A stretch of 64,000 nt of DNA, taken from the NCBI GenBank assembly GCA_049317285.1, contig JBMOIO010000001.1:20388-84387 (forward strand), written 5' to 3'. This document shows positions 28,008-31,049 of the stretch, piece after piece; within the stretch, counting starts at the first letter, position 1, and every line of letters starts with the position of its first letter. The position numbers and the translations under genes are program-made. The notes under the pieces are model-generated. The model ran no database searches. It was not told the origin of the DNA and saw only the letters and a program-made list of their open reading frames with translations. This stretch comes from Minisyncoccia bacterium. Lineage in GTDB: Bacteria; Patescibacteriota; Minisyncoccia; Phycocordibacterales; UBA9973.

Positions 28008-29735
28008 CTATGCCTCGCAGTTGACGCACATATTGTCTTCACCAACAAAAATCACTTTTGGCTTTTTTGCTTCAGCATTCTCTTGGAGCTTCTTTCGGCC
28101 GAATTGCTGAGCGGCATTCATGCTGTGCTGGTAATACAGCGTCTTGACCCCTTTTTTCCATGCATGGAGGTAGAGTGCGTTGAGATCCCTGGCCGGAGTC
28201 GACGGGTCAACCATGATGTTGAGTGATTGCGCCTGATCAATATATTTCTGGCGATCTGCTGCTTGCTCGATGATTGCCTTCTGGTCGATTTCGCTAAACG
28301 TGCGGAACACTTTCTTTTCGTGTTCGGTTAAGAAATCGAGGTGCTGTACTGAGCCGTCATTGTCGCGGATGCTTGTCCAGACTTCTGTGGTATTGTGCCC
28401 TTTTTCTTCAAGCAACTTCTCAAGAGTGTGGTTTTTAATGGTTACCTTCATTTTGTCCACGTCTTTAACAAAGGCGTTTGACATCAATGGCTCAATCCCT
28501 TGCGAGACCTGGCCGAGGATAAATGCAGATGAGGTTGTCGGAGCGATAGCAAGGAGTGTGGTGTTTCGGCGACCGTACCCTTTCAATACTTCTGGTTCAC
28601 CGTATTCTTTTGCCATCGCTTCCGATGCCTTGTACGCCTTCTCTTTGATCAAGGCAAAAATCTCTTCGTTTAATGCAGATGCTTCCGGACTTTCAAACGG
28701 AATGTTCTTTTCCTGAAGGAAGGTGTGCCAGCCGAGTACTCCCAGACCGAGAGCGCGATGCTCTTTTGCAAACTTGTGCGCTCGCTTCATGAAGTAAAAC
28801 GCTGACTGCTTGTGAGGGTCACTACTGTCTCGGAAGGTCTCGAGGCGCTGTACAAATTCTCCAATTACAGTATCGAGGAACATAGCGAGTGTCTCCACTG
28901 CGTCGGTATCCTTCCATTCGTTGTAGTGGCGAAGGTTGATTGATGAAAGACAGCAGACAAACGAAAGCTCGTCGGAAGTCGGGAGACAAATCTCAGAACA
29001 GAGATTGCTTCCATGAATTCGCATACCCTTATCTTTATACACGTCCACTGTATTGTTATTTACAGTGTCACTGAAAAGAATGTACGGGTACCCAATTTCA
29101 GTTCGGCGCTGGATGACCTTTGCCCATATCTTGCGCTTCTCTTGGTCGCCATCAATCATGGCCTGAAGCCATGCGTCGCCCACTGTCACCGCATAGGTCG
29201 ACTCTTGAATAGCGTGGCCTTCTTTTCCAATATTTAAATATTCCTCGATGTCCCCATGTTCAACCGGAAGGTATGGTGCGCAGTGTCCGCGACGAACAGT
29301 ACCCTGCGAAACAATGTTAATAAGACTATCAAAAAGCTCTAAAAAGTGAACAGAGCCTGAAGAATGCCCGTTGTCCTTAATCTCAGAACCTCGTGCACGA
29401 AGCGCGCCGAGGTGCACTGAAGTTCCTCCGCCGTATTTTGTCATCATGCCCACTTCAGCATGAGTGTAGAGAATACGGGACATATCATCATCAACGAAAC
29501 TTCCAAAACAGCTAATCGGAAGGCCTCGGGCCTCGCCATAGTTTGCCCAAATAGGCGTCGCAAGCGAATAAAAACCACGCGACATGTAGTCGTAAAACTT
29601 GTCGGCAAAGCCAGGTTTATTCAGATGTCTCTCGGCAATCTCTGCAATTTGCCGGATGCGTTCCTCAGCACTAATCCCCCCGATAAGATAGCCTTTTGCT
29701 AAGAATTTTCTACTGTTTTCGTTAAGCCAATACAT
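28008..29735 (-). CDS. nrdA: ribonucleoside-diphosphate reductase alpha subunit, class I, short form without N-terminal ATP-cone
   Basis: SNLCSEICLPT (active-site N-C-E), C-terminal ...MCVNCEA Cys pair; starts directly in the catalytic barrel (MYWLNENSRKFLAKGYL). Confidence 0.85.
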   Translation of the reverse strand: MYWLNENSRKFLAKGYLIGGISAEERIRQIAEIAERHLNKPGFADKFYDYMSRGFYSLATPIWANYGEARGLPISCFGSFVDDDMSRILYTHAEVGMMTKYGGGTSVHLGALRARGSEIKDNGHSSGSVHFLELFDSLINIVSQGTVRRGHCAPYLPVEHGDIEEYLNIGKEGHAIQESTYAVTVGDAWLQAMIDGDQEKRKIWAKVIQRRTEIGYPYILFSDTVNNNTVDVYKDKGMRIHGSNLCSEICLPTSDELSFVCCLSSINLRHYNEWKDTDAVETLAMFLDTVIGEFVQRLETFRDSSDPHKQSAFYFMKRAHKFAKEHRALGLGVLGWHTFLQEKNIPFESPEASALNEEIFALIKEKAYKASEAMAKEYGEPEVLKGYGRRNTTLLAIAPTTSSAFILGQVSQGIEPLMSNAFVKDVDKMKVTIKNHTLEKLLEEKGHNTTEVWTSIRDNDGSVQHLDFLTEHEKKVFRTFSEIDQKAIIEQAADRQKYIDQAQSLNIMVDPSTPARDLNALYLHAWKKGVKTLYYQHSMNAAQQFGRKKLQENAEAKKPKVIFVGEDNMCVNCEA

Positions 29736-29777
29736 GATATGTGTTAATTGATTATGTTGATAATTCGACCTTTTCTC

Positions 29778-31049
29778 TTAGAAGAGATCATTGCTCGTTA
29801 TACTTTTCGTCTTTTTGCTGTAGTTAATTGATTTCTTGTTAAAAAAGTCCCCGTGCTTCGTAGCAATCACTTCATCATAAAACCAATCTGATTCTTTGAG
29901 AAGCGCCTCGTTCGTATCAAATATCTTTGCAATACCGATACTCTGGAGCGAATTATTGAACCGTTGCTTAATAAACTCAAGAACGACTTCTTTGGAGATA
30001 AACTCCAGTTCCCCTTTTTCAAAAATCCATTCCACAACCGCCGTCTCTGATTCAAACGCTTCCTCGCAGATCCTGATAACACCCTCTTCAAACGCTGCAT
30101 CAAACCATTCGGGGTGCTCGGACTTGATAATGTTGATGATTTCGATTCCAAACAATCCATGAATTTGCTCTTCTTTCGAGGTTGCCTCTACGGCATTTGA
30201 TATGCCCTTGAACAGATTCTTGTGCTTATTGAAGGACATAATGACGAGGAACTGGGAGAACAAGGAAACGTGCTCTATAAATAACGAGAAGAGCAATATG
30301 GACTGGCTATAGTCTCGATTGTCTTCACTACGAGCATTCACCAAAGATTTTTCCAGATACTGCACGCGCTTTATGAGTGCGGGTACCTTATCAATCGTCT
30401 TAAAGACTTCGTTGAGCCCGAGTATTTCCAAGAGGTGCGCATACGCATCCGTGTGGCGCACCTCACTTTCTGCGAATGTTGCACCCACCGCTCCGATCTC
30501 AGGCTTTGGCAGTCGTTTATAAATATCTCCCCAAAATGTTTTGATAGTTACCTCTATCTGCGCGATGGCAAGCATGGCGTTTTGAATAACATTACGTTCT
30601 TTTTCGTCGACGTTCACTTTAAAGTTCTGTATATCGCCAACAAAGTTAAACTCGGTGTGGATCCAGTAGGAGTGGCGCACCGCATCGACATAGTCATAGA
30701 GTTCCGGGTATTCATATGGCTTGAGATGGACTCTTTTTTTGAAAATATCGCGTTTTCGCTCCTGATTTCTTTCTTCGCGGTACAAGACATAGGCCTTTGC
30801 AACCTCAAAATCCCCTTTCAATGCAATCTCTTTTTCAACGACATTTTGGATATCCTCAACCTCGGGAATATGATCTTCTCCATAGGTCTCTTCTAGAACT
30901 GAGACTATTTTGTCGGTAAGTTCCGTAAGGGAAACAATATCAATAAGCACTCTAGACGCTTCATATGCACGAGCAATTGCGGACTGAATTCGTGATTGGT
31001 CAAAATCAGTAATAGTGCCACTTCTTTTTTTGATACGTGTAATTGCCAT
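29778..31049 (-). CDS. nrdB: ribonucleotide reductase beta subunit (NrdB, ferritin-like di-iron) with N-terminal ATP-cone domain
   Basis: N-terminal MAITRIKKRSGTITDFDQSRIQSAIARAYE (ATP-cone), then FAESEVRHTDAYAHLLE and FSLFIEHVSLFSQF iron ligand motifs; start at internal Met (cat 31047-31049). Confidence 0.8.
   Translation of the reverse strand: MAITRIKKRSGTITDFDQSRIQSAIARAYEASRVLIDIVSLTELTDKIVSVLEETYGEDHIPEVEDIQNVVEKEIALKGDFEVAKAYVLYREERNQERKRDIFKKRVHLKPYEYPELYDYVDAVRHSYWIHTEFNFVGDIQNFKVNVDEKERNVIQNAMLAIAQIEVTIKTFWGDIYKRLPKPEIGAVGATFAESEVRHTDAYAHLLEILGLNEVFKTIDKVPALIKRVQYLEKSLVNARSEDNRDYSQSILLFSLFIEHVSLFSQFLVIMSFNKHKNLFKGISNAVEATSKEEQIHGLFGIEIINIIKSEHPEWFDAAFEEGVIRICEEAFESETAVVEWIFEKGELEFISKEVVLEFIKQRFNNSLQSIGIAKIFDTNEALLKESDWFYDEVIATKHGDFFNKKSINYSKKTKSITSNDLF

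Follow-up and report, generated by a model that had tools for sequence, protein, structure and literature searches.

The nrdBA locus on contig JBMOIO010000001.1, part of a metagenome-assembled genome (MAG) of an uncultured, ultra-small bacterium of the Minisyncoccia (Patescibacteria, or candidate phyla radiation, CPR), raises the question of whether a class I ribonucleotide reductase (RNR) of this host carries its allosteric domain, the ATP-cone, on the radical-generating β subunit NrdB instead of the catalytic α subunit NrdA and, if so, what kind of reductase it is and how it would be switched off. We examined a 64-kb stretch of that contig (hereafter the window). An original prediction, made from the bare sequence, had proposed such a pair in the order nrdB-nrdA, with an NrdA of 575 amino acids that begins directly in its catalytic domain, and had regarded it as another instance of an arrangement described in only a few lineages. 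The domain assignments, the closest structural match and the conserved residues all bear out a class I RNR with a cone on NrdB and a cone-less NrdA, and the pair joins that of Leeuwenhoekiella blandensis as a further case of a cone on the radical-generating subunit. The best overall explanation, which we hold to be highly probable, is a class Id NrdAi/NrdBi operon in Minisyncoccia with a cone switch of the L. blandensis type.

The nrdB gene (29778..31049, minus strand) is a continuous open reading frame (ORF) of 423 codons that starts with an ATG at 31049; the N-terminus of its product is MAITRIKKRSGTITDFDQSRIQSAIARA (MAITRIKKRSG...), the same peptide that was pointed out earlier. A longer form starting from a TTG at 31115 was rejected as unsupported because 117 of 120 homologues begin at the Met encoded by this ATG. 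The N-terminus of NrdB does score as an ATP-cone: residues 5-95 match the Pfam family PF03477 with 65 bits (cut-off 25.8; E = 9.3e-18), and residues 106-379 match the small-subunit family Ribonuc_red_sm (PF00268) with 188 bits. Codons 1-100 (30750..31049, minus) thus correspond to the N-terminal cone with its allosteric activity site, and codons 101-423 with the stop codon (29778..30749, minus) to the linker, the ferritin-like dimetal core and the α-binding C-terminal tail. No glutaredoxin domain was detected in NrdB with Pfam. An AlphaFold model of NrdB, built from a shallow alignment of 25 sequences and of moderate quality (mean predicted local distance difference test score, pLDDT, 66.9), was used only for the topology of the cone and for structural matching. 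Its cone consists of a β-hairpin and four helices (pLDDT 78-91), and its top Foldseek match is the full-length, cone-containing NrdB of L. blandensis (5OLK; 394 aligned columns, E = 1.8e-28). Chance similarity is not an issue here because the domain E-values range from 1e-18 to 1e-99 and the same architecture is common to more than 120 homologue clusters.

The nrdA gene (28008..29735, minus) encodes the 575-residue catalytic subunit of the NrdAi type. Residues 3-70 match Pfam Ribonuc_red_lgN (29.5 bits, cut-off 28), and Ribonuc_red_lgC matches in three stretches (332 bits); the protein comprises only the all-α and barrel domains, and no Pfam ATP-cone match was found in it even at an E-value of 0.1. 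Residues 2-551 pass the NCBIfam equivalog model TIGR02510 ('NrdE-prime') with 780.8 bits against a cut-off of 602.25, and the protein also passes NF006577 (712 bits, cut-off 620). In alignments with full-length class Ia and Ib α subunits, position 43 of NrdA corresponds to position 192 in the E. coli protein and to position 144 in class Ib NrdE, so the roughly 100-150 N-terminal residues that carry the class Ia cone are truly absent. Nor can they be hidden upstream. The two genes share one reading frame, the 45 nucleotides at 29736..29780 (minus) hold only the nrdB TAA and 14 sense codons, and an N-terminal extension of NrdA is impossible since that TAA lies in frame 14 codons before the nrdA ATG.

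The two genes look co-transcribed as a two-gene operon, judging from the signals around them. The original prediction had placed a terminator immediately upstream of nrdA. This was mistaken: the 42-nucleotide nrdB-nrdA spacer (29736..29777, minus) contains neither a terminator nor a hairpin, and the only clean terminator hairpin is found 3' of nrdA, beginning directly after its stop codon (27973..28007, minus). This intrinsic terminator has a 15-bp stem between runs of A and U and a folding energy of -16.2 kcal/mol (z = -4.98), equalled by none of 200 shuffled sequences. The promoter and 5' untranslated region of the operon presumably lie in the 157 nucleotides between a DUF192 gene and nrdB (31050..31206, minus), where matches to sigma-70-like promoters are weak and no more frequent than in shuffled sequence. 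No NrdR box (ACACWATATATWGTGT, with up to three mismatches) occurs anywhere in the 64-kb window, and the upstream boxes expected of an NrdR-regulated nrd operon are absent within it. A six-frame phmmer search of the window revealed no other RNR or ATP-cone gene or ORF.

Which subclass of class I this pair represents can be read from both subunits. In sequence comparisons NrdB comes nearest to its L. blandensis counterpart (5OLK; E = 2.5e-163, aligned over residues 4-423), followed by the cone-less class Id β subunits of Aggregatibacter and Flavobacterium johnsoniae. The best matches of NrdA in the PDB are 6DQX (705 bits) and 6DQW, both of which we take to be structures of class Id α subunits. 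NrdA contains C76 (ISCFG), N244, C246 and E248 (SNLCSE), C261/C262, Y534/Y535 and a C-terminal C570-x-x-C573 motif, whose catalytic and relay roles we assign by motif, on a presumed equivalence to E. coli numbering. In NrdB, all six metal ligands (E166, E196, H199, E259, E294 and H297, which correspond to Glu170, Glu200, His203, Glu263, Glu298 and His301 of L. blandensis NrdB) are invariant in 120 homologues. The same is true of K170, W173, Y203 and T290, counterparts of the residues described as specific to class Id in L. blandensis: Lys174 in the bulged helix B, Trp177, and Tyr207, which is kept off the metals by Thr294 (PMC5794259, PMC6754362). The C-terminal tail is also conserved, with Y410 and the terminal ...SITSNDLF. 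All sequence-testable features are therefore those of a typical NrdAi/NrdBi pair, that is, of a predicted class Id (dimanganese, tyrosyl radical-free) reductase, and for this NrdB we infer a Mn2(III/IV) cofactor without a tyrosyl radical.

The cone of NrdB is predicted to be of the type that binds two nucleotides, as the putative binding residues are kept. In phmmer alignments to solved cones, K8, R9, Y90, R94 and R98 fall on Lys7, Arg8, Tyr83, Arg87 and Arg91 of Prevotella copri NrdD, which are reported to hold two nucleotides; R98 has a second counterpart in Arg102 of the L. blandensis protein. Like these five residues, about 30 further positions of the cone vary little or not at all among 120 homologues. 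A profile built from the cones of the window clade matches cone 1 of Pseudomonas aeruginosa NrdA (5IM3), the L. blandensis NrdB cone (5OLK), the P. copri NrdD set (8P23) and an NrdD cone (9D3X). Three of these four (5IM3, 5OLK and 8P23) were solved with two nucleotides. The profile gives the P. aeruginosa NrdA cone a higher score (50.7 bits) than the L. blandensis NrdB cone (43.9 bits), and with E-values up to 1 it finds no match to the E. coli or human NrdA cones, which bind a single nucleotide. Strong purifying selection acts on the cone of NrdB: the ratio of nonsynonymous to synonymous substitution rates (dN/dS) is about 0.05-0.12, a value that is approximate because dS is near saturation. 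The dN of the cone is about twice that of the core, and the cone has evolved about two times faster, the median identity among homologues being 68% for the cone and 85% for the core.

Has this clade, then, received its cone independently? Among 13 groups of cone-bearing NrdBi, the cores are 59-83% identical and the cones 29-51%. The cone of the window clade is an outlier, only 33-38% identical to the cones of all other groups, although the clade shares 82% core identity with a sister CPR group, and the cone of that group is 47% identical to flavobacterial cones. One observation speaks against a single fusion: the clade cone resembles NrdA and NrdD cones at least as closely as it does that of L. 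blandensis NrdB. However, helix α4 and the linker or junction that follows are nearly identical in every cone-bearing NrdBi group, and cone and core have diverged in the same ratio of about 2 to 1 whether members of the clade are compared with each other or with L. blandensis. For these reasons independent acquisition or replacement of the cone in the window clade appears unsupported, and we favour one ancestral cone fusion with accelerated change in the part from the hairpin to helix α3, as the sequences suggest.

By homology with the enzymes of L. blandensis and Facklamia ignava, the reductase would work as follows. The β subunit would build a Mn2(III/IV) oxidant, and no tyrosyl radical, from Mn(II)2 and reactive oxygen species. 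The oxidising equivalent would pass from the β tail tyrosine Y410 through Y534/Y535 of the α subunit to C246, and a protein of the thioredoxin or glutaredoxin type would re-reduce the α subunit at the C-terminal CxxC. When the cone holds ATP, β would remain a dimer and form active α2β2. Two dATP molecules per cone, bridged by Mg2+, would make the cones of two β dimers pair into β4, to which α2 could bind only unproductively (α2β4 or α4β4), turning off the synthesis of deoxynucleoside triphosphates (dNTPs). The L. blandensis mechanism is well precedented (PMC5794259, PMC8350387), and we consider it the most likely one here because of the class Id match, the retained two-nucleotide residues and the strong purifying selection.

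Several observations weigh against this reading. NrdB reaches the cut-off of no NCBIfam β-subunit model (best score 142.8 bits against 237), which we attribute to there being no model dedicated to NrdBi and not to any doubt about the family. The identity of the metal, nucleotide binding and oligomerisation are for this NrdB things that we infer only. The cone is merely 33% identical to that of L. blandensis, as opposed to 69% for the core. Finally, three residues of helix α3 have changed in the clade: L. blandensis Met80 is replaced by Ala76, Asp77 by Lys73 and Asp73 by Asn69, and these replacements are fixed or nearly so (Ala76 is invariant, Lys73 is found in 114 and Asn69 in 108 of 120 homologues). 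In L. blandensis the cone-cone contact of β4 is formed by helices α3 and α4 with Asp73, Asp76/77, Met80, Lys89, Ile92 and Ile93 (PMC5794259). Among the counterparts in the window clade E72 is kept, but with the three replacements in α3 the inhibited oligomer could differ. The cone might accordingly be functional with another off-switch, either a dATP oligomer or contact other than the L. blandensis β4 or a nucleotide stoichiometry that differs as in F. ignava, where one ATP and two dATP are bound (PMC6187632). Besides the remodelled helix α3, the outlying position of the clade cone and its better profile score against the P. aeruginosa NrdA cone fit such a switch, as does the contrast with the sister CPR cone, which is closer to flavobacterial ones. 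Against it, Lys85, Val88, Leu89 and Arg91 are conserved as counterparts of Lys89, Ile92, Ile93 and Arg95, and α4 and the linker differ hardly at all from their L. blandensis equivalents. Moreover, the F. ignava cone, at just 28% identity to the L. blandensis cone, still drives dATP-dependent β4 formation (PMC6187632). We consider a different off-switch unlikely and, given the conserved α4 and the β4 formed by the diverged F. ignava cone, retain the dATP-induced β4 tetramer of the L. blandensis type as the probable, if less than secure, model for this NrdB.

Two further explanations would remove the cone, or the whole operon, from the regulation of the host. The faster evolution of the cone might be taken to mean that it is vestigial or purely structural and plays no part in allostery, in the manner of the degenerate additional cones that some NrdA proteins carry. 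Yet its dN/dS is that of a strongly constrained domain, more than 30 of its positions, including every aligned nucleotide-contact residue, are invariant, and the fusion has been kept in at least 56 Patescibacteria species genomes; conserved contacts and purifying selection together make a vestigial cone very unlikely. The operon could also lie outside the core genome of the host, as an auxiliary RNR recently brought in by a phage or another mobile element, or as a chimera produced in assembly or binning. Cone-bearing NrdBi is indeed abundant on viral contigs: IMG/VR contains 580 relatives, with the cone present in 79 of the best 80. The core of NrdB is also 69-71% identical to that of Flavobacteriales, which indicates horizontal transfer at some point in the history of the family. 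The viral copies, however, are just 54-60% identical to NrdB, and the operon is embedded between a 16S rRNA gene with the DUF192 gene on one side and an RNase P RNA gene, a DAO-family flavoprotein gene, secA and mur genes on the other. This neighbourhood is conserved in many related MAGs, with the order DUF192-nrdB-nrdA-...-secA recurring in the closest ones, from which we conclude that nrdBA is a long-term chromosomal resident. Base composition points the same way, being uniform across the region, with a guanine-plus-cytosine content of the operon equal to that of its flanks and the rest of the window. A mobile or chimeric origin is the least probable of the explanations considered, and the class Id operon with an L. 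blandensis-type cone switch stands as the preferred one.

How common is such an operon? Among 185,579 species-representative genomes, at least 559 loci encode relatives. In the best 80 of them, analysed in detail, the cone is always present and nrdA always lies immediately downstream of nrdB, in the predicted order. Fifty-six of these 80 loci are labelled as Patescibacteria (Paceibacterota, Nomurabacteria, Kaiserbacteria, Absconditabacterales and others; 60-89% identity) and about 18 as Flavobacteriales genera (one Algicola; 61-64% identity), the remainder being unclassified MAGs. After clustering at 50%, at least 27 of the best 150 representatives start within the cone, and six cluster representatives checked with Pfam have the cone-plus-core architecture. 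The fusion of the cone to NrdB is thus widespread in sequence space and common in Patescibacteria. The 2018 survey that described the fusion, based on 93 RefSeq sequences, mostly from Flavobacteriales, had called it a minority arrangement (PMC5794259). The earlier statement that it occurs in only a few lineages is correct for biochemical descriptions, which cover L. blandensis (PMC5794259) and F. ignava (PMC6187632), but not for sequences, given at least 56 Patescibacteria genomes, about 18 Flavobacteriales genomes and hundreds of viral contigs. In the literature searched, we found no paper that links the ATP-cone NrdB fusion (NrdBi/class Id RNR) to Patescibacteria, Parcubacteria or CPR.

Two other gene forms were encountered among the relatives. 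An 85-kb contig from public sequencing data, with a phage-like neighbourhood, contains a single ORF of 1019 codons (L161:4001-7060) in which Pfam recognises an ATP-cone, NrdB and NrdA; it would be a single-polypeptide β-α class I RNR. In addition, many NrdBi cluster representatives (P0122, P0123, P0127-P0129 and others) are 560-820 residues or longer and match NrdB in two or three separate stretches, probably because they contain inteins within the ferritin core. Some of these, such as P0122 (817 residues), also carry the cone.

The locus is an uncharacterised member of a known and structurally solved kind, which public databases annotate only generically: the identical protein in NCBI (MFZ4499920.1, on a 148-kb MAG contig) is named 'ribonucleotide-diphosphate reductase subunit beta [Minisyncoccia bacterium]'. 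The locus leaves the mechanism, as now understood, unchanged. What it adds is the taxonomic extension to Patescibacteria/CPR, a large and previously undiscussed group of hosts, together with a naturally diverged cone. The cone on β is the one known case in which an enzyme has had an allosteric domain shifted from its catalytic to its radical-generating subunit, and this arrangement is common in nature and no flavobacterial curiosity. An oxygen-dependent, Mn-based and dATP-regulated RNR in conserved synteny suggests that CPR lineages make dNTPs aerobically and control the size of the pool, and the diverged cone is a natural variant for asking which cone residues set the inhibited oligomer. More tentatively, the cone-bearing class Id enzyme may be the sole RNR of a very small genome in a Paceibacteria-like clade, with a dATP-inhibited assembly that might also differ from the L. 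blandensis β4; we regard this as possible but doubtful. In the 2018 survey all organisms that encode a cone-bearing NrdB had a further RNR as well (PMC5794259). If the enzyme were the sole RNR, these bacteria, supposedly fermentative scavengers, would need oxygen or superoxide as well as manganese to make dNTPs, and the production of DNA precursors would be gated solely by a cone on the β subunit.

Several genes around the operon deserve mention. The DUF192 gene (31207..31683, minus) lies 5' of nrdB and precedes it in most of the closest Patescibacteria loci. The gene for the DAO-family flavin adenine dinucleotide (FAD) oxidoreductase (26213..27583, minus), downstream of the nrd operon, recurs in only four of those loci; it is pure speculation that this flavoprotein could supply the reactive oxygen species for assembly of the class Id cofactor. 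Directly downstream of the nrdA terminator is a gene for bacterial class A RNase P RNA (27602..27959, minus; E = 3.8e-31), which a default Rfam scan missed because its 99.5 bits fall just under the gathering threshold of 100. The 16S rRNA gene (31885..33563, minus) is 1679 nucleotides long, compared to the 1533 positions of the model, so that insertions are probable. DUF192 and nrdBA come after it in place of a 23S rRNA gene; no 23S or 5S rRNA gene is present anywhere in the 64-kb window, and the rRNA genes appear to be unlinked. A NUDIX hydrolase gene (33830..34402, minus; 190 residues) adjoins the 16S rRNA gene at the end that faces away from nrdBA. Elsewhere in the window, ARAGORN, with introns allowed, identified a tRNA-Asn (gtt) gene (10078..10707, minus) split by a 557-nucleotide intron that contains an Rfam group I intron match (10124..10415, 71.6 bits) and an ORF for an HNH-type endonuclease (10309..10647). 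The T-arm and the 3' half of the acceptor are recognisable just downstream of the intron. This split gene is consistent with a recent preprint on group I introns in tRNA genes of Patescibacteria.

Of the characterised systems, the L. blandensis NrdAi/NrdBi enzyme (5OLK, 6SF4/6SF5; PMC5794259, PMC6754362, PMC8350387) is the most similar. It shares with the window enzyme the order of domains in β subunits of almost equal length (423 residues here, 427 in L. blandensis), the junction and linker ERK-x-x-IF-x-KR-x-x-LKPYEYPEL, the metal ligands, the Lys/Trp/Tyr/Thr residues, the C-terminal tail, the cone-less α subunit and the order nrdB-nrdA. The differences lie in the diverged cone with its Ala, Lys and Asn in helix α3, and in the host, a flavobacterium in one case and a Patescibacteria MAG in the other. 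The Grx-ATP-cone-NrdB of F. ignava (PMC6187632) is likewise a class Id β subunit, and its cone drives dATP-dependent β4 formation. Compared with L. blandensis, the N-terminal half of the F. ignava cone is strongly diverged and the C-terminal half conserved, a pattern that, going by the published description, is like that of the window cone. In contrast to the window NrdB, the F. ignava protein has a glutaredoxin domain. The class Ib NrdF of Meiothermus (PMC5794259) also combines a cone on the radical-generating subunit with a cone-less α subunit, NrdE, but belongs to another subclass, has its cone at the C-terminus and is uncharacterised.

The two-nucleotide cones of P. aeruginosa NrdA (cone 1, 5IM3) and P. 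copri NrdD (8P23) are the best or near-best matches of the clade profile and have the same Lys-Arg pair and the Tyr/Arg/Arg set of helix 4. They are located on the catalytic subunits of class Ia and class III enzymes, respectively, and their inhibited oligomers are α4 or NrdD tetramers. The cone-less class Id RNRs, by contrast, carry no ATP-cone on either subunit and, being without one, would lack dATP on/off regulation. Their β subunits, those of F. johnsoniae and Aggregatibacter actinomycetemcomitans (6CWO/6CWP/6CWQ, 8DQ3), nevertheless have the same core fold and dimanganese ligand set as the window NrdB, and their α subunit (6DQW, 6DQX) is the same minimal one as the window NrdA.

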